A stretch of DNA of 64,000 nucleotides, taken from positions 108 to 64,107 of the forward strand of contig CANQWY010000002.1 of the NCBI GenBank assembly GCA_947627675.1, in the 5' to 3' direction. The DNA is from an uncultured Bacilli bacterium. Lineage in GTDB: Bacteria > Bacillota_I > Bacilli_A > RF39 > UBA660. A program made the translations under genes and the position numbers. Position 1 is the stretch's first letter; each line of letters opens with the position of its first letter. Of this stretch, positions 13,220 through 57,600 are shown one piece after another. Under the pieces are notes generated by a model, which was not told where the DNA came from, ran no database searches, and was given only the letters and a program-made list of their open reading frames with translations.

Positions 13220-13233
13220 ATTTCCCGGGAAAT
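13220..13233. promoter_or_regulatory. Noc-binding-site-like palindrome (NBS) ATTTCCCGGGAAAT
   Basis: Exact match to the 14-bp B. subtilis NBS consensus, embedded in a 22-bp perfect palindrome AATTATTTCCCGGGAAATAATT. Confidence 0.6.
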
Positions 13234-24529: not shown

Positions 24530-25429
24530 TTATTTATCTAAATGCATTATTTCTAATAATCTATTTAAATCATTATTATTAGTAAAACTTATTTCTATTT
24601 TATTTTTCTTTATTTTTACTTTTGTACCAAGTCTTTCATTTAAACTTTCTTCAATATATTTATATGGATTTATTTTTTCTTCTTTTTTAGTAATTTTAAT
24701 CCTTTTTGGATATTCTTCATTATCTGTTGTAATACTTTCAATTTCTCTAACACTTAAGCCATCTGTTATTATTTTATCAGTTAATTCTTTTATTTGATAA
24801 ATATCATCTAATTTACTTAATACTCTTGCATGACTCATTGAAATTTTGTTTTCATTTATTAAATTTTGAGTTTCTTCTGGTAAATTCAAAAGTCCTAAAA
24901 TATTTGTAACATGAGATCTACTTTTTCCTAGTCTTGATGCTAATGTCTCCTGAGTTATATTTAAATTTTTTATTAAATTTTCATATGCTTTTGCTTCTTC
25001 TATTGCAGTTAGGTTTTCTCTTTGTAAATTTTCTAATAAAGCTATCTCCATCATTTCTGAATCTGAAAAATCTTTAACAATAGCTGGAATTTCTTCTAAA
25101 CCAGCTAGTAGGGATGCTTTAACTCTTCTTTCACCTGCAATTATTTCATAACCTTTAATACTTTTTTTGGCAATAATTGGCTGAAATACACCATGTTCTT
25201 TAATAGAAGCTGCTAATTCTTCTAATTTTTCTTCATCAAATACTTTTCGTGGCTGATATGGATTACTTCTTAATTCTTTTAATGGAATTTTTACGATTTC
25301 TTCTTTTGGAGTCTGCTCAATTATTTTTTCTTCAACTCTTGTATAATCGATTGGTTCACTATTAAATAATTCTTCTAGTCCTTTACCTAAGGCTTTTCTT
25401 TTAATATTATTCTGTTCCATTTCTATCAA
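24530..25429 (-). CDS. parB: Chromosome partitioning protein ParB/Spo0J
   Basis: ParB box II GERRVKAS, HTH region and C-terminal dimerisation domain. 299 aa. Immediately downstream of parA/soj. Confidence 0.85.
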   Translation of the reverse strand: MIEMEQNNIKRKALGKGLEELFNSEPIDYTRVEEKIIEQTPKEEIVKIPLKELRSNPYQPRKVFDEEKLEELAASIKEHGVFQPIIAKKSIKGYEIIAGERRVKASLLAGLEEIPAIVKDFSDSEMMEIALLENLQRENLTAIEEAKAYENLIKNLNITQETLASRLGKSRSHVTNILGLLNLPEETQNLINENKISMSHARVLSKLDDIYQIKELTDKIITDGLSVREIESITTDNEEYPKRIKITKKEEKINPYKYIEESLNERLGTKVKIKKNKIEISFTNNNDLNRLLEIMHLDK

Positions 25430-26195
25430 TCACTTCCTTTGCAAGATTTATATATGCTTCTGAACCTCTGCTTTTTGGATCGTAAGCAATAATTGGTTCA
25501 CCATGTGATGGTGCTTCTGTTAATCTTATTAGTCTAGGAATTATTGTATTATAAACTTTTTCTTTAAAAAATTTACGAATATCATCTACTACTTCAAATC
25601 CTAAATTTGTTCGCGAATCTAACATAGTTAATAAAACTCCTTCTATTTGAAGTGTAGGATTTAACGTTTTTTGAGCAAGCATTATAGTATTTAATAATTG
25701 CATTATTCCCTCTAATGCAAAAAATTCACATTGAACTGGTATAATAACAGAATCTGAAGCTGTTAAAGCATTAGTTGTAATTAAACCAAGAGAAGGAGGA
25801 CAATCAATTATAATATAATCAAATTGATTCTTTATTTTATCTAAGTTAATTTTTAATTGATTTCCTTTTTGATATCCAGGTTCTTGTTGACTTTTTTCTA
25901 AAAGTTCTATATCAAGGCCTGCTAAATTTATCGTTGCTGGCATTACTTGTAAATTTTTATATTTTGTTTTAATTATAGCTTTTTCTATACTACATTTTCC
26001 TATTAAAACGTCATATATGCTTTTATCAATATCAGCTTTATTTATTCCTACACCTGTTGTTGTATTACCCTGAGGATCTAAGTCTATTAATAAGACTTTT
26101 TTTCCTAATACTGCAAGAGATGCAGAAAGATTTATACTTGTAGTTGTTTTGCCTACGCCACCTTTTTGATTTACTAGTGCTATTGTCTTTCCCAT
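25407..26195 (-). CDS. parA: Chromosome partitioning ATPase ParA/Soj
   Basis: Deviant Walker A KGGVGKTT. 262 aa. Confidence 0.9.
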   Translation of the reverse strand: MGKTIALVNQKGGVGKTTTSINLSASLAVLGKKVLLIDLDPQGNTTTGVGINKADIDKSIYDVLIGKCSIEKAIIKTKYKNLQVMPATINLAGLDIELLEKSQQEPGYQKGNQLKINLDKIKNQFDYIIIDCPPSLGLITTNALTASDSVIIPVQCEFFALEGIMQLLNTIMLAQKTLNPTLQIEGVLLTMLDSRTNLGFEVVDDIRKFFKEKVYNTIIPRLIRLTEAPSHGEPIIAYDPKSRGSEAYINLAKEVIDRNGTE

Positions 26196-26310: not shown

Positions 26311-27804
26311 CTAGTAATTACTGTTTTTATCTATTCTTATTAATATTTGATATTGATTTTCAAAATTCATTTCATCAGTATCTATCTTAGCACCATGAAG
26401 TTCTAAGTTTTTTAAGGTTTTTCGTATTTCATCTACTATTTGTCTAATATTATATTCTTCTTCTCCATTCCTTTTATTATTATTTAAATTTTCATCCATT
26501 AGAACATTACCTAAAGATTTATTAGACTTATTTATTTTTTGTTCTTCTTTTATTGGTTTTTGAAATAATGTTTGGTTGATATCCACTAATGACTCTTTAT
26601 GGTCAGTAGTTGGCTTTGATGATTTAGCAAATTCTATTAAACTATTATTAGAAGCTGCTTGATTACTAAACATATCTCCAAGGTCTGATTTAGGTATTTC
26701 GCCTGTATTAGGTAACTCTATTGACATCAAATTAGGAGCTGAAAAATAATCTTCTTTGTTATTATAATTTTTATTTTCGCTTTCTCTCAATGCTTCTTCA
26801 GCTGGAGTAAATTTTTTATTATCTTCATTATTATCATTAACAAAAGTAGGTTTAATATTTAGTAAAGTATCTAAATCTGATTTATTATTAGATTCTGTTT
26901 TTGAATCTATTGAAGAATTTATATCTTCTAAATCTTTAGTATTGTTTCTTAAATCCATTAAATTTATCGGTTTAGATAGAAGTGAAGAATTGTCACCATT
27001 TAAATCAGGATATTTTTCATTTTCTTCTTCTTCATTATCAATTTCACCATAATTTATTATTTCGCTATTTTTAGAATCATTAGGAGGAGTCATTAAAAAA
27101 CTTGGCATCTTATTTAGATTATTACTTTCTATTGAAACTGGTGTTGGGTTTATGAGATTTTTTAAATCTTTTTCATCTTTTATCTTATCATCATTCATAT
27201 TAATTTCCTTTATCTCATTTTCTAATTGTCTTACTGTCATCTTTTGTTTTATCACTTTTTTTAACATTTCTACTTGTTTATCATGATCATTCAAATTTAG
27301 TAAAGTCCTAGCATGTCTCTCTGAAATTTCTTCTTTCAGTAAAGATTTTTGAACCTCTTCTGTCAAAGAAAGTAACCTTAATTTATTTGCAACTGCTGAC
27401 TGGCTTTTACCCATAGTTTTAGCTAAACCCTCTTGTGTCATATCATCAAGTTCTATTATTTTTTGATATGTTCTAGCTTCTTCTATTGGATTTAAATTTC
27501 TTCGTTGTAAATTTTCCAATAATGCTACTTTAGCAGCTTCCTTATCATCTAAATTTCTAATTATCGCAGGTATTGTTGTTAATCCAGCAAGTGCAGATGC
27601 TTTATATCTTCTTTCACCTGCAATTATTTCATATTTACTCTCACTTATTTTCCTTACTATTATAGGTTGTATAACACCATGTTCTTTGATAGATACTGCT
27701 AATTCTTTCAAAGCTTTTTCATCAAAGAGTTCACGAGGTTGAAATCTATTAGGTATTATATCATCCAGATGTATATATATTACTTCCTGATTATCATTCA
27801 TCAA
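26311..27804 (-). CDS. noc: Noc-like ParB paralog with long low-complexity C-terminal extension
   Basis: ParB N-domain with GERRYKAS box II and an HTH. It occupies the noc position (rsmG-noc-soj-spo0J order). 497 aa, with an N/D/E/K/S-rich tail of about 300 aa. It has no N-terminal amphipathic-helix extension. Confidence 0.65.
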   Translation of the reverse strand: MMNDNQEVIYIHLDDIIPNRFQPRELFDEKALKELAVSIKEHGVIQPIIVRKISESKYEIIAGERRYKASALAGLTTIPAIIRNLDDKEAAKVALLENLQRRNLNPIEEARTYQKIIELDDMTQEGLAKTMGKSQSAVANKLRLLSLTEEVQKSLLKEEISERHARTLLNLNDHDKQVEMLKKVIKQKMTVRQLENEIKEINMNDDKIKDEKDLKNLINPTPVSIESNNLNKMPSFLMTPPNDSKNSEIINYGEIDNEEEENEKYPDLNGDNSSLLSKPINLMDLRNNTKDLEDINSSIDSKTESNNKSDLDTLLNIKPTFVNDNNEDNKKFTPAEEALRESENKNYNNKEDYFSAPNLMSIELPNTGEIPKSDLGDMFSNQAASNNSLIEFAKSSKPTTDHKESLVDINQTLFQKPIKEEQKINKSNKSLGNVLMDENLNNNKRNGEEEYNIRQIVDEIRKTLKNLELHGAKIDTDEMNFENQYQILIRIDKNSNY

Positions 27805-27921
27805 TTTTCATCCCGCTTTCTATTCTATTCCATTTTAATTATAGCAAATGAAAAATTTAATTTCAAGAAAAATGTCATTATCTGAAAAGAAAAAATACCA
27901 TTTATAATTAGGTATTTTTTG

Positions 27922-28143
27922 TTATCTTATTCGTACATTACTATTTTCTAATTCATCTATATCAATAGAATCAGATATATTATTTTTATATGTACTATTT
28001 TTTAATTGTTCTTCTTTATACTTTTTATAATATTCCGAAAGCTCATATAATGATAATCCTGTACTTTGGGCTAGTGTTTCCATATCAACATTTCCTGATT
28101 CAAAACAAGTTTTTATATATTGTATTACTGTTTCTTCTTTCAT
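27922..28143 (-). CDS. Small hypothetical protein (HTH-like)
   Basis: 73-aa ORF between noc-like gene and rsmG. No family recognised. Confidence 0.3.
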   Translation of the reverse strand: MKEETVIQYIKTCFESGNVDMETLAQSTGLSLYELSEYYKKYKEEQLKNSTYKNNISDSIDIDELENSNVRIR

Positions 28144-28233: not shown

Positions 28234-28914
28234 TTAAAATTCAGTATTATTTTTTGAGCAAGTCACTTTTTCTATTACCAGTATGGTTCTTTGGCTATTT
28301 TCTTTAGGTAGAGCAAAACTTTCTTTCCTTGTTATTTTTAATTTATATTGATTTAATTTATTGTTCCTATTAATTTCTTGTAATTCTTCTTCTATATGTG
28401 CTTTTAATGGAATGAATTTAGTGCTTCCATCAATCAAATTGCATGTATAATCCAAAAGTTTTGATAAATTTGCAACTGCTCTTGTCGTTATTACATCAAA
28501 GCTTTTATCACTATATTCTTCAATTCTTTTATGTACAGTATAAATACCTGTTAAATTTAATTGTTTTATTACTTCATTTAGAAAAGTTATTCTTTTATTA
28601 AGAGAATCTAATAATGTTACTTCTAAATTTGGATATACTATTTTTAAAACTAATCCTGGAAAGCCGGCTCCTGTACCAAAATCAAGCAAAGTTTTTACTT
28701 TTTTAAGATTAATTACTTTTACAATCGTAAGACTATCATAAAAATGCTTTAAATATACTTCATCTTTATTAATAATCCTAGTTAAATTCATTTTTTTATT
28801 CCATTCAATTAATAAACAATAATATTTTTCTAAATTATTTAGCTGATCACAAGTTAAATTAATACCTAATTTTTTTAATTCAAATATAAACTCTTCTTTA
28901 GACATGTTCTTCAT
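28234..28914 (-). CDS. rsmG: 16S rRNA (guanine527-N7)-methyltransferase RsmG (GidB)
   Basis: 226 aa. GTGAGFPG SAM motif. Synteny with mnmG. Confidence 0.85.
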   Translation of the reverse strand: MKNMSKEEFIFELKKLGINLTCDQLNNLEKYYCLLIEWNKKMNLTRIINKDEVYLKHFYDSLTIVKVINLKKVKTLLDFGTGAGFPGLVLKIVYPNLEVTLLDSLNKRITFLNEVIKQLNLTGIYTVHKRIEEYSDKSFDVITTRAVANLSKLLDYTCNLIDGSTKFIPLKAHIEEELQEINRNNKLNQYKLKITRKESFALPKENSQRTILVIEKVTCSKNNTEF

Positions 28915-37333: not shown

Positions 37334-37470
37334 AAACAATATTTAAGAAGATCAACTAGATCTTTTTATTTTTTTAGTCTATCCTACAAAATACGATAAA
37401 TATCGACTAAGAAATATGCTATTATTTGTTTAGAAAACGAGAAAAAAGTCGTTTTCTAGGGGGAGAAAAT

Positions 37471-37938
37471 ATGAAAAAAGAATATGAAATTAATGATGGA
37501 ACATTAGCAGTTATATCTTTAAAAGATGGAAATTCTAAAATATTGGAGGATAATCAAAATTATATTGTGTCTTGTAGTAGCTTTGATATTTTAGATCATA
37601 GTTGTAAATATTTTGGCAGTAGTTATTTAGGAAGGAAAGAAGGCTCAAAATCAATGATTGGTGCTAGTTATAAATTACCTATTGTAATTGAAGACTCTCG
37701 TGATATTGTCTTTTTTCCAACATCTAGTCCTGAGGATAGTGAATGTATATGGATTGCAGTTAATAAAATTGTTACTTTTAATCAAGAAAAATATAATACA
37801 ACTAAAATCATTTTTGAAAATGGAATAGAGCTTATTGTTCCTTTATCATATAGGTCGGTTGAAAATCAAATTTATAGAGCAACTAGATTGACTTATCTAT
37901 TAAAAACTCATAAATCTAATAATAGAAATAGGATATAA
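37471..37938 (+). CDS. comK: ComK-family competence transcription factor-like protein
   Basis: Strong similarity to the B. subtilis ComK core (YEINDGTLAV..., SCKYFGSSYLGRKEGS..., KLPIVIEDSRDIVFFPTSSPEDSECIWI...) as recalled from memory. The start is taken at the second ATG behind a GGGGGAG RBS; the ORF track starts at 37426. Confidence 0.7.
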   Translation: MKKEYEINDGTLAVISLKDGNSKILEDNQNYIVSCSSFDILDHSCKYFGSSYLGRKEGSKSMIGASYKLPIVIEDSRDIVFFPTSSPEDSECIWIAVNKIVTFNQEKYNTTKIIFENGIELIVPLSYRSVENQIYRATRLTYLLKTHKSNNRNRI

Positions 37939-43840: not shown

Positions 43841-43885
43841 ATTGGCATACTTAAAAAGATCTAAATGGTATTTGGCATTGTCAAT
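43841..43885. repeat. Conserved ~45-bp motif, copy 1 (ATTGGCATACTTAAAAAGATCTAAATGGTATTTGGCATTGTCAA)
   Basis: About 80% identical to a second copy at 44615..44662. Function unknown. Confidence 0.4.
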
Positions 43886-44614: not shown

Positions 44615-44662
44615 ATTGGTATATTAAAAAAGCTCTAAATGGTAGCTGGCACTGTCAAACTT
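44615..44662. repeat. Conserved ~45-bp motif, copy 2
   Basis: AATTGGTATATTAAAAAAGCTCTAAATGGTAGCTGGCACTGTCAAA aligns with copy 1. Confidence 0.4.
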
Positions 44663-44764: not shown

Positions 44765-45335
44765 AATTATTTCCCGGGAAATAATTTAAAACTTTTTATT
44801 TATAGAAATTTCAAATTTTAATTTTTTAATTAAAAATAATTTGATAACATTTTTTAAGAAATTAATTCATTTATAAAAATATTATCATTATTTAGTATTA
44901 ATAAAAAATATAAACTCAAACTTGATATTTTTTAAAGATTAACGTTTCACGTGAAACATTGTATTTTTTTCTTATTCTTATCATTAAATTTTTTTAGGAT
45001 ATTATTTCCCGGGAAATAATTTAAAACTTTTTATTTATAGAAATTTCAAATTTTAATTTTTTAATTAAAAATAATTTGATAATATTTTTTAAGAAATCAA
45101 TTCATTTATAAAAATATTATCATTATTTAGTATTAATAAAAAATATAAATTCAAACTTGATATTTTTTAAAGATTAACGTTTCACGTGAAACATTGTATT
45201 TTTTTCTTATTCTTATTATTAAGTTTTTTTAGGATATTATTTCCCGGGAAATAATTTAAATAATTATAATGTTTCACGTGAAACATAAAGAAATAAGCAG
45301 TTATTAAATAAAAAAAATATTTCCCGGGAAATATT
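44765..45335. repeat. 235-bp direct tandem repeat (2 full units + partial) carrying alternating NBS and parS palindromes
   Basis: NBS ATTTCCCGGGAAAT at 44769, 45004, 45239 and 45319. parS at 44943 and 45178 (CGTTTCACGTGAAACA, 15/16) and at 45270 (TGTTTCACGTGAAACA, 16/16). Unit period is exactly 235 bp with near-identical units. Confidence 0.85.
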
Positions 45336-45391
45336 TTGAAATAGATAATATAAATAAATTGCTTTTTTTAATAGTTTATTATAAAATGTAA

Positions 45392-45473
45392 TCGTGCAAT
45401 AAATTTATGTGGAAACAGGTCAGGATCGGAAGATAGCAGCCTTAACACAATAGATTTATGTGCACTTTTTTTT
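45392..45473 (+). ncRNA. ffs: Signal recognition particle RNA (small 4.5S-type SRP RNA)
   Basis: Conserved domain IV sequence CAGGUCAGGAUCGGAAGAUAGCAGCC flanked by a pairing helix (GTGCAATAAATTTATGTGG / CACAATAGATTTATGTGCAC) and a T8 run. Located next to tadA and dnaX, as in Bacillus. Confidence 0.6.
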
Positions 45474-45987: not shown

Positions 45988-47649
45988 ATGTATCAAACGT
46001 TATATAGAAAATATAGATCTAAAAAATTTTCTGAACTAGTTGGACAAGACGTTATTGTTAAAACATTAAAAAACTCTATAAAAAACGAAAAAATTTCACA
46101 TGCATATTTATTTGTAGGTCCACGAGGAACAGGAAAAACTTCAACTGCTAAAATATTCGCGAGAGCTGTAAATTGCTTAGATAATGATGCTGGAGAAATT
46201 TGCGGAAAATGTTCTATGTGCAATATATCAAATAGTAGCGAATGTTTAGATATTATAGAAATAGATGCTGCTTCTAATAATGGTGTAGATGAAATAAGAA
46301 ATTTAAGAGATAAAGTTAATTTAGTTCCTAATCAACTTAAATATAAAGTATATATTATTGATGAAGTACATATGTTAACTATCCAAGCTTTTAATGCTTT
46401 ATTAAAAACACTGGAAGAACCACCAGAACATATTATATTTATATTGGCAACTACTGATATACAAAAAGTTCCGGAAACTATTATATCTAGATGTCAATGT
46501 TTTAATTTTTCTAGAATGACACAACAAAATATAATAGATAATTTATCTAAAATATGTAATGAGGAAAAAATTAATATAGATTTAGAAGTACTAAAGCAAA
46601 TTTCATTAGCTGCTGATGGCGGAATGAGAGATGCACTGAGTATTTTAGATAAGTTAATTTCATATGGTGAAGATAATATAAAATTAGATGATTTTTTACA
46701 ACTTAATGGTCTAGTTACAGTAACTGAAATAGAAAGTTTTATAAACTATATTTTTTCTAAGGACGTAAAAAATGTTATTGATCAAATATGCGATTGGAAT
46801 TTAAAAGGTAAAAATTTAATTCAAATTATGATGCAATCATTAGAATATTTAAAGGATAAATTAATTAGAGCATATACAGATAATAATGATATTAATACTA
46901 ATAAATATCAAATGCTTGCAAATTTATTGAATGAAAAAATGATAAATATTAAAAAAAGTTCTAATCCTAATATTTATATTGAAATTATTCTTTTAGATTT
47001 TATTTCTTCACTTAATAATGAGTTAAATATTTCCCGGGAAATAATTCCAGAAAAAAGTTCGAGTGATAATAATGTTTCACGTGAAACATTATTAGAATCA
47101 AAAAATACAATTAACTACAAACAAATAGAAAAAAAAGATATTACTAACTCTTTAGATGAACAAAATAGTAATATAAGAGATATAATGAATGTTAGAATAA
47201 ATAATACTTTTATAGATGCAACAAAAAACGAACTAAAACAAATGATAAATGAATTTAGTAAATTAAATGATTATGTTTTTGATCAAAATATTGGTTATTT
47301 AGTTTGTGCATTATTAGAAGGAAAGATTAGATTAAGTAGTTCTGAATATATAGTAATAAGTTATGAATATGACTCAGTAGTAAGTACAAATATTGTTAAT
47401 TATCAGAAAATGGAATCTGTTTTAAAAGATATACTTAATATAAATAAAAAAATTGCAATTATTTCTGATTCTGATTGGAATAAGGTTGCAAAAGATTTTA
47501 TAGAAAATAAGAAAAATAACATTAGTTATGAATATATAGAAGAACCAGAACTATTGTTTGATAAAACAAAAAAAATAGAAAATAATACAAATAATAAAAA
47601 TAATGATAGCATTTCAGATGTATTTGGTGATATAGTAGAAATATACTAA
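45988..47649 (+). CDS. dnaX: DNA polymerase III subunit tau (single-product, gamma/tau)
   Basis: AAA+ GPRGTGKTS. Zinc module CGKCSMC. 553 aa. Position before ybaB-recR. Confidence 0.9.
   Translation: MYQTLYRKYRSKKFSELVGQDVIVKTLKNSIKNEKISHAYLFVGPRGTGKTSTAKIFARAVNCLDNDAGEICGKCSMCNISNSSECLDIIEIDAASNNGVDEIRNLRDKVNLVPNQLKYKVYIIDEVHMLTIQAFNALLKTLEEPPEHIIFILATTDIQKVPETIISRCQCFNFSRMTQQNIIDNLSKICNEEKINIDLEVLKQISLAADGGMRDALSILDKLISYGEDNIKLDDFLQLNGLVTVTEIESFINYIFSKDVKNVIDQICDWNLKGKNLIQIMMQSLEYLKDKLIRAYTDNNDINTNKYQMLANLLNEKMINIKKSSNPNIYIEIILLDFISSLNNELNISREIIPEKSSSDNNVSRETLLESKNTINYKQIEKKDITNSLDEQNSNIRDIMNVRINNTFIDATKNELKQMINEFSKLNDYVFDQNIGYLVCALLEGKIRLSSSEYIVISYEYDSVVSTNIVNYQKMESVLKDILNINKKIAIISDSDWNKVAKDFIENKKNNISYEYIEEPELLFDKTKKIENNTNNKNNDSISDVFGDIVEIY
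47029..47088. promoter_or_regulatory. NBS (47029-47042) + perfect parS (47073-47088) pair embedded in-frame in the dnaX coding sequence
   Basis: ATTTCCCGGGAAAT and TGTTTCACGTGAAACA (inside the 26-bp perfect palindrome AATAATGTTTCACGTGAAACATTATT), separated by 30 bp. Encodes ...NISREIIPEKSSSDNNVSRETLL... in the variable linker of tau. Confidence 0.75.
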
Positions 47650-57329: not shown

Positions 57330-57600
57330 TACTGATTTAAATGTATAGAAGAAGAGGTTATTATACTGATAATTTAAGAGAGTTTCTGGTTGGTGAAAAG
57401 AAATATTATTGTTTAATAATTATGGCTTTGGAACTATTATATTGATATGTAAATATAATCGTATATAGGCGTTAACTATTTGAGTGTATAATAAAGTTAT
57501 TATAAAGTAAGGTGGTACCACGGATTTAGATTCGTCCTTATATGTTATAATGACTTTTTATTTTTATAAATAAGCATAATATTAAATTTAGATTAAAAAA
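57330..57600 (+). promoter_or_regulatory. T-box riboswitch leader of metG
   Basis: T-box consensus AGGTGGTACCACGG at 57510-57523, followed by U-rich terminator/antiterminator region. About 300-nt leader. Confidence 0.6.

Follow-up and report, generated by a model that had tools for sequence, protein, structure and literature searches.

An uncultured Bacilli bacterium of the GTDB lineage RF39; UBA660 (GenBank assembly GCA_947627675.1, contig CANQWY010000002.1, positions 108 to 64,107) encodes a Noc-like protein that keeps Noc-type DNA-binding residues and the cytidine triphosphate (CTP) residues of its family, is without the membrane-targeting helix at its N-terminus, has a greatly expanded interdomain linker, and is accompanied near the replication origin by Noc-binding sites (NBS) that alternate with parS. 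The gene occupies 26311-27804 on the minus strand of the 64,000-nucleotide stretch that was analyzed, hereafter the window, and its product is 497 amino acids long when read from a TTG codon in the list of open reading frames (ORFs). On balance we favor the reading that this protein is an NBS-specific CTP clamp that loads together with ParB at the origin and binds partners through its linker.

Comparisons were made with relatives of the protein, all of them from uncultured, metagenome-assembled organisms. A protein search returned at least 120 near-full-length homologues of 436-535 amino acids, and a relative was encoded in 283 genomes in a scan that used one genome per species. Eighty loci were retained out of these 283 matched genomes, and all counts given below for 80 relatives refer to these species-level genomes.

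Noc descent and DNA specificity

The CTP-binding N-terminal domain (ParB_N, PF02195, E = 2.5e-36) spans amino acids 7-100 (27505-27786, minus strand), and is followed at amino acids 103-202 (27199-27498, minus strand) by a helix-turn-helix DNA-binding domain (HTH_ParB, PF17762, E = 3.5e-34); a Pfam scan of the protein returned nothing beyond these two. When solved structures were ranked, Geobacillus Noc (7nfu and 7ng0, E of about 1e-64) and B. subtilis Noc (7ol9, 7e-55) came ahead of Spo0J (6sdk, 1.5e-51). The Noc family model TIGR04285 (nucleoid_noc) gave 294.9 bits over amino acids 7-230, missing the curated cut-off of 315 because a 246-amino-acid insertion detaches the C-terminal part of the match, worth 18.3 bits. 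The GERR (R65, R66) and ENLQR (N98) motifs are intact. In the structure-match alignment R66 and N98 are the equivalents of R89 and N121 of B. subtilis Noc, which serve CTP binding and CTP hydrolysis, respectively (PMC8429893), and both are invariant in an alignment with 19 homologues (A1).

Four helix-turn-helix residues govern the choice between NBS and parS. In the RF39 protein they are Q135, K141, S146, and R163, corresponding to Q173, K179, S184, and R201 in Caulobacter numbering, while the ParB counterparts have R at 173 and G at 201. Of the NBS bases, adenine 1 is recognized by Q173 and cytosine 6 by R201, and one Lys at either 179 or 184 suffices to license NBS binding (Jalal et al., 2020; PMC7383237). 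The pattern GKSQS..ANK[LI]RLL[small]L...ISERHAR is present in 80/80 relatives, as is Q-K-[A/S/G/T/V]-R at the four positions, with Lys never found at 184. The canonical four-residue signature is therefore incomplete; since either Lys is enough on its own (PMC7383237), a Q-K-x-R protein is nonetheless expected to be NBS-specific. Furthermore, the N-terminal ParA-activating peptide LG[KR]GL is not present in the protein, whose N-terminus reads M(M)NDNQEVIYIHLDD. To judge by these residues, the protein is of Noc descent and DNA specificity rather than a second Spo0J. An earlier, sequence-only reading of this DNA had placed a gene with a normal ParB N-domain and helix-turn-helix in the noc slot, which the domain matches and the synteny described below confirm, and had named the four specificity residues as the point that would tell Noc from Spo0J; among these, Q173, K179, and R201 are of the Noc type, and the set is not the parS one.

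Absence of the membrane-targeting helix

Alignment to Noc of G. thermoleovorans and B. subtilis begins only at their residues 24-26. Missing are the roughly 22 N-terminal residues that bear the membrane-targeting helix, comprising the 10-amino-acid alpha1, a connecting loop, and alpha2, the last of which is conserved among Noc homologues (Jalal et al., 2021; PMC8429893). In B. subtilis, Noc that is shortened by just its initial 10 residues neither binds liposomes nor forms peripheral foci nor complements (PMC8429893). The TTG is preceded at one codon by a TGA stop, with a TAG another five codons beyond; an upstream start, or a genetic code in which TGA specifies Trp, was considered and rejected, given that the TAG beyond the TGA blocks extension anyway. 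In all 80 relatives, 9-22 residues precede the HLDD/YLDD core and the amphipathic N-terminus is absent. By its alignment, the protein is in effect a natural counterpart of the engineered N-delta-26 Noc. A replacement membrane helix was sought in the linker by hydrophobic-moment scan, which found no cationic, hydrophobic amphipathic window there. Because the amphipathic membrane-targeting helix is missing, the protein's tethering to the membrane must be unlike that of the Bacillus model. The sequence-only reading had noted the lack of an N-terminal amphipathic extension and proposed a Noc-derived protein with membrane-tethering or condensate properties unlike those of the Bacillus protein; the first is borne out by the stops and the alignment, and the second stands as regards Noc descent and membrane tethering.

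An expanded linker ahead of a retained C-terminal domain

The same reading took the additional residues for a long C-terminal extension, a low-complexity and probably disordered tail. The extra residues are real, but they are an insertion at amino acids 205-450 (about 246 residues; 26455-27192, minus strand; delimited by alignments, AlphaFold2, and composition), and because a Noc-type C-terminal domain is retained beyond them we regard them as a linker expansion and not as a tail. That domain (amino acids 451-497; 26314-26454, minus strand) consists of one helix and a two-strand hairpin, placed by AlphaFold2 at residues 453-469 (helix), 474-481, and 484-491 (strands). The last 61 amino acids alone match positions 204-255 of the 255 in TIGR04285 (E = 1.2e-3, 18.3 bits), a statistically weak but specific match, being the only meaningful one among 18950 NCBIfam models. 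The last ~45 residues are highly conserved (YNIxQMVxxIRxTLKELExxGAKIDTDEMNFENQYQILIKIDK) both in A1 and in a second alignment with 80 genome-derived homologues, and GAKIDTDEMNFENQYQILIKIDK in the domain is nearly invariant in A1.

The linker has grown from about 20 amino acids in known Noc proteins to about 150-280 in this lineage. It is rich in Asn, Ser, Glu, and Lys, with a net charge of -20 and 16.7% Asn (8.1% in the long ORFs of the window). Disorder is predicted for it, with an AlphaFold2 predicted local distance difference test (pLDDT) score below 50 for most of amino acids 223-450 in a model of low confidence overall (mean pLDDT 57, from a 20-sequence alignment). Low complexity is another part of the earlier description that did not hold: entropy in 30-amino-acid windows is 3.38 bits in the linker vs. 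3.48 bits in the folded part, and the segment contains conserved motifs. Those in the window's protein are IINYGEI (249-255), INLMDLRNNTKDLEDI (~279-292), DLDTLLNI (309-316), FTPAEEALRESE (332-343), EDYFSAPNLMSIELPN (351-366), SLIEF (388-392), and KSLGNVLMDE (429-438). Across the family the motifs take the form (F/I)INYGEI followed by an acidic run, (I/V)DxxxLKxNxxDI, (A)DLDSLLNI, F(I/T)TPAE(E/K)A, and (E)DYFxxPDL, while PSFLM, SLIDF, and KSLGxALMxE are kept in the nearer subclade only. At least four of the linker motifs are 80-100% conserved among proteins that are otherwise 45-70% identical.

A six-frame translation of 1.6 Mb of related, origin-proximal DNA showed the motifs to be confined to noc-like proteins; other proteins of the lineage that shared them, and might have hinted at a common partner, were sought in this translation and none were found. 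Neither Pfam nor NCBIfam gave a match in amino acids 204-497 at E up to 10, except for the Noc C-terminal end, which leaves no sign of the known domain that the sequence-only reading had allowed for. Searched exhaustively with HMMER, 1.84 billion cluster representatives yielded only 54 matches (E <= 1e-3) to the linker plus C-terminal domain. Because all of the matches inspected belong to the anchor-less Noc family, or are its fragments or chimeras, the linker is considered lineage-restricted. It also appears to be under selection rather than junk, since its motifs are conserved and restricted to noc-like proteins and the architecture is found in all 80 genomes inspected. The subclade motif (I/M)P(S/D)FLM is reminiscent of the C-terminal peptide of FtsZ, and KSLGxALM of the LGxGL peptide at the N-terminus of ParB; both motifs are too short to judge and are not kept family-wide, and neither likeness is claimed here.

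NBS and parS sites are interleaved near the origin

The cognate NBS of the protein is the 16-bp palindrome TATTTCCCGGGAAATA, which is present and conserved in the genome. The window, at 25% GC, contains six exact ATTTCCCGGGAAAT NBS sites, compared with 0.13 in dinucleotide-preserving shuffles even at two mismatches, in agreement with the exact motifs seen in the sequence-only reading. Five of the six lie 10-13 kb to the right of oriC, mixed with parS. Four of these belong to a tandem array (44766-45322, no strand) in the 1.7-kb intergenic region between gyrA and tadA, built of about 2.4 copies of a 235-bp unit. With NBS at 44769, 45004, 45239, and 45319 and parS at 44943, 45178, and 45270, the order along the array is NBS, parS, NBS, parS, NBS, parS, NBS. 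The fifth NBS (47029-47042) lies inside the dnaX coding sequence, 45 bp from a parS (47073-47088; neither with a strand). The sixth (13220-13233, no strand) is isolated, about 21 kb to the left of oriC in a gap between convergent ORFs and directly past a terminator-like hairpin.

To examine the homologous region elsewhere, eight relatives were picked solely by the similarity of TadA (58-72% identity). In each of them, the intergenic region between gyrA and tadA contains one or more NBS and one or more parS (up to one mismatch). An NBS also lies inside dnaX in six, to which two (L086 and L087) add a parS ~55 bp downstream. L087 has an alternating NBS/parS array of its own, with a period of ~136 bp. 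Another of the eight, L085, shares a contig with a 528-amino-acid anchor-less Noc (L033). By comparison, just one NBS and one parS (up to one mismatch) were found in 1.376 Mb of noc-flanking DNA from the 80 relatives, a scarcity first considered as a sign against conserved NBS and dropped as such once the homologous gyrA-tadA regions were examined. Moreover, at least 120 loci with an NBS followed after 10-40 nt by parS were recovered from 241 million metagenome records. At least 117 of the 120 listed have gyrA, tadA, or dnaX homologues in a like arrangement, and their median GC content is 26%. The arrays in them reach nine NBS and nine parS in strict alternation (L176), and their periods, from ~60 to 260 bp, differ by genome. 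None of the 320 NBS in the related loci departs from the full 16-bp palindrome. Sorting NBS of these pattern-selected loci into those inside and outside the zone was too crude for a reliable background density and is not relied on. Hence, the co-location of NBS and parS is conserved and has been repeatedly amplified in the lineage. In the literature searched we found no description of interleaved NBS/parS arrays or of an anchor-less, long-linker Noc.

Several other features were noted in this region. Exact NBS occur at a like intergenic position, between a TP_methylase gene and pth, in the relatives L081 (at 7208) and L084 (at 16589), a hint that more NBS positions may be conserved along the right arm of the origin. 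A small bacterial signal recognition particle RNA (45390-45471, plus strand; Rfam RF00169, 53.8 bits) is located between the NBS/parS array and tadA. Two ~32-nt copies of a sequence (AAAAAG.TCTAAATGGTA..TGGCA.TGTCAA), at ~43850-43885 and ~44625-44660, lie on either side of a ~780-bp non-coding stretch between gyrA and the array, and may be the remnant of an inserted element.

Distribution in uncultured gut Bacilli

The ORF is intact and the long-linker architecture present in 80/80 loci, with proteins of 406-528 amino acids (median 474). Source records are metagenome-assembled genomes of uncultured organisms from gut and rumen, entered as "Bacilli," "Tenericutes," or "Mycoplasmatota," as well as Clostridium sp. 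CAG:417, Mycoplasma sp. CAG:877, and Candidatus Faecimonas. The last corresponds to GTDB genus CAG-877 of order RF39, with ~28% GC and a 1.4-Mb genome (PMC8035907). The architecture is shared throughout this lineage of low-GC, uncultured gut Bacilli, which belong to order RF39 where an order is named, an assignment that we infer for the other metagenome-assembled genomes. For most RF39 species, a cell wall and the ability to sporulate are predicted (PMC10868615).

Proposed mechanism and alternatives

We propose that the protein would load at NBS as a CTP-gated sliding clamp, beside ParB at neighboring parS, and that a mixed nucleoprotein complex would form on origin-proximal DNA. The protein has no membrane helix of its own; in its place, the long linker would be a flexible, multivalent arm for docking, and its motifs would bring one or several partner proteins to the region of the origin, with division, membrane-anchoring, or replication factors as candidates; output is assigned to protein contacts of the linker motifs because the membrane helix is missing. 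Since NBS are interleaved with parS in origin-proximal arrays, a role at the origin seems indicated rather than chromosome-wide occlusion, and the protein may serve as an origin-region adaptor and not as a chromosome-wide, direct DNA-membrane tether as in B. subtilis. That it is such an adaptor, acting together with ParB, we put forward tentatively, with less assurance than clamp loading and partner binding. A bolder version holds that RF39 Noc has been repurposed, from a chromosome-wide DNA-membrane tether, into a second, ParB-partnered centromere protein. Noc and ParB clamps would assemble a composite complex at the origin by loading at the alternating sites of the tandem arrays, and the linker would recruit division, anchoring, or replication factors to it; this seems to us conceivable and slightly more speculative still.

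Several points weigh against this proposal. Adjacent loading sites for ParB and Noc could reflect competition or mutual insulation, not cooperation. The protein has no Lys at 184, unlike nearly all characterized Noc proteins, so its affinity or specificity could differ. NBS are not exclusive to the array, as seen from the site at 13220 and from a few in relatives that lie beyond the zone, and as the DNA sampled is origin-proximal, NBS may also be scattered elsewhere, as in Bacillus. The structural model is of low confidence and the disorder of the linker is a prediction. Additionally, richness in Asn, Lys, and Ser is partly what AT-biased mutation would produce in any weakly constrained segment (Asn makes up 8.1% of the proteome, taken from the window's long ORFs), and the functions given to the motifs are drawn from their conservation alone.

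The main rival is a classical nucleoid-occlusion factor that tethers NBS DNA to the membrane chromosome-wide, through weak amphipathic segments in the linker or through a membrane-bound partner. We consider it unlikely, though it is the alternative that deserves most attention. The Noc-type DNA-binding residues, the Noc C-terminal domain, and the conserved synteny all agree with it, and walled, sporulating RF39 (as predicted; PMC10868615) would need control of the division site. AlphaFold2 places short helices in the linker at 282-287, 310-314, 334-343, and 431-441, and a mildly amphipathic, net-positive stretch occurs at about amino acids 422-434; however, the stretch at 422-441 is kept in the closest subclade only, the best amphipathic windows are negative in mean hydrophobicity, and a linker of net charge -20 is disfavored at anionic membranes. 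Similarly, the isolated NBS at 13220 and the few NBS outside the origin zone in relatives would suit chromosome-wide tethering, but NBS are nearly absent from the 1.376 Mb of origin-left DNA and concentrated beside parS. Finally, in B. subtilis the loss of a 10-amino-acid helix is enough to abolish function (PMC8429893).

It is improbable that the linker is a neutral expansion, arising from AT bias and slippage in a reduced genome, with the N-terminal loss a form of decay and the protein a DNA-binding relic of little consequence. The composition is indeed skewed toward residues whose codons are favored at 25% GC (N, K, S, I), linker length varies (total protein 406-528 amino acids), and most linker positions are poorly conserved in the wider family. 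Against such drift, the ORF is intact in every one of the 80 species-level genomes inspected, the DNA-binding and CTP residues are invariant, the C-terminal domain is kept past the linker, and at least four motifs persist at 80-100% conservation despite 45-70% identity. The cognate NBS are perfectly conserved and have multiplied in arrays, pointing to continued selection on the pair of protein and site.

Two last alternatives are very improbable. A second Spo0J/ParB that binds parS would share the superfamily (6sdk, E = 1.5e-51) and have parS nearby, but Q173, K179, and R201 are of the Noc type where ParB has R at 173 and G at 201, Noc structures outscore Spo0J, exact NBS are abundant, and a canonical spo0J (R173, ParA-interaction peptide, ParB_C) lies two genes downstream. 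An overlooked, known folded domain in the extra region is suggested by size alone, and opposed by the lack of Pfam or NCBIfam matches, by pLDDT below 50 over most of amino acids 223-450, and by the HMMER matches, which among those inspected lead to the anchor-less Noc family only.

Gene neighborhood and other features of the window

The start of the noc-like gene is probably an ATG at 27801, giving 496 amino acids; we take it as the likely start because a database protein of 496 amino acids (P0001) is 100% identical to the ATG-started product. The genes run mnmE-mnmG-rsmG-(73-amino-acid ORF)-noc-soj-spo0J on the leading strand to the left of oriC, and GC skew flips sign near 34 kb, between rnpA and dnaA. 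Upstream of noc is rsmG (gidB; 28234-28914, minus strand; Pfam GidB, E = 1.5e-48). Downstream are soj (parA; 25407-26195, minus strand; Pfam AAA_31 and CbiA) and the canonical spo0J (parB; 24530-25429, minus strand), whose 299-amino-acid product has the N-terminal peptide KRKALGKGLEELF, R173, and a ParB_C domain. The rsmG-noc-soj-spo0J synteny is kept in 71-80 of the 80 relatives; soj adjoins noc in 78 and spo0J is present in all. A promoter-like site (TTGAAA-17-TATAAT with TG extension; 27838-27866, minus strand) upstream of noc had the top score in a promoter scan (11/12), in which matches overall were not above chance in the AT-rich DNA of the window.

The 73-amino-acid ORF between rsmG and noc (27922-28143, minus strand) has sub-threshold helix-turn-helix matches only. 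That it might be the split-off N-terminus of noc or a conserved partner was rejected, as tblastn gave no match in any of the 80 related loci; lacking a counterpart there, it is strain-specific or spurious. Further along, an ORF of 170 amino acids (37426-37938, plus strand) lies between dnaN and recF; ORFs of relatives at the equivalent position carry a Pfam ComK domain, and bofA comes after recR in most relatives. Both fit the prediction in the literature of sporulation in this reduced-genome lineage. A T-box leader was found at 57337-57542 (plus strand; Rfam RF00230, 100 bits).

Significance

A large and common uncultured gut lineage thus keeps NBS specificity and the clamp motifs and drops a helix that is indispensable in Bacillus. 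Retention of the specificity without the helix implies that the Noc-NBS module may be usable beyond direct membrane tethering, and provides a natural, N-terminally truncated variant with which to probe the current model of Noc. The conserved linker motifs are handles toward new partners of ParB-family clamps. The interleaved arrays lend themselves, as ready-made natural templates, to the question of how two different sliding clamps share, block, or organize one stretch of DNA, and bear on the divergence of noc from parB after duplication. Should the bolder, centromere version be true, it would be a case from nature in which a single interleaved platform is built for the loading of two CTP clamps that are paralogues. 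The protein and its sites are of interest for ParB-family CTP switches, chromosome segregation, and division-site control.

Comparison with known systems

With Noc of B. subtilis, G. thermoleovorans, and S. aureus (TIGR04285; 7NFU, 7NG0, 7OL9, 6Y93) the RF39 protein shares the CTP-binding N-domain with equivalents of R89 and N121, a helix-turn-helix with Q173, K179, and R201, the 16-bp NBS TATTTCCCGGGAAATA, a Noc-type C-terminal domain, and the rsmG-noc-soj-spo0J position. Unlike Noc it lacks alpha1 and alpha2, has a small residue at 184 where Noc has Lys, and scores below the curated cut-off of TIGR04285 (294.9 vs. 315). Its linker is acidic, motif-bearing, and predicted to be disordered, at ~150-280 amino acids in the lineage (246 here) vs. 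~20 in Noc. Furthermore, as far as was sampled, NBS are clustered and interleaved with parS by oriC in RF39, whereas those of Noc are scattered around the chromosome. Judged on sequence, the protein is a Noc by descent and DNA specificity that lacks a defining feature of Noc in the functional sense, namely CTP-controlled, direct membrane binding via an N-terminal helix.

ParB/Spo0J proteins (6SDK, 4UMK, 1VZ0) have the same fold, domain order, and CTP-clamp motifs, as well as loading sites near the origin. In contrast to them, the RF39 protein has Q173 and R201, with which parS binding is not expected, and is without the N-terminal ParA-stimulating peptide (LGKGL). Its C-terminal domain matches the Noc model and not Pfam ParB_C, and a genuine spo0J is encoded alongside.

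B. subtilis RacA, an origin-anchoring adaptor that binds ram sites and DivIVA, and S. aureus RicO, reportedly an origin-anchoring adaptor as well (bioRxiv 10.64898/2026.03.06.710092), are cited here as functional analogies. The RF39 protein is unrelated to either in sequence, and its partner and anchoring role are hypothetical. The possible likeness is one of function: as with RacA and RicO, a site-specific DNA binder near oriC may link the origin to another structure.

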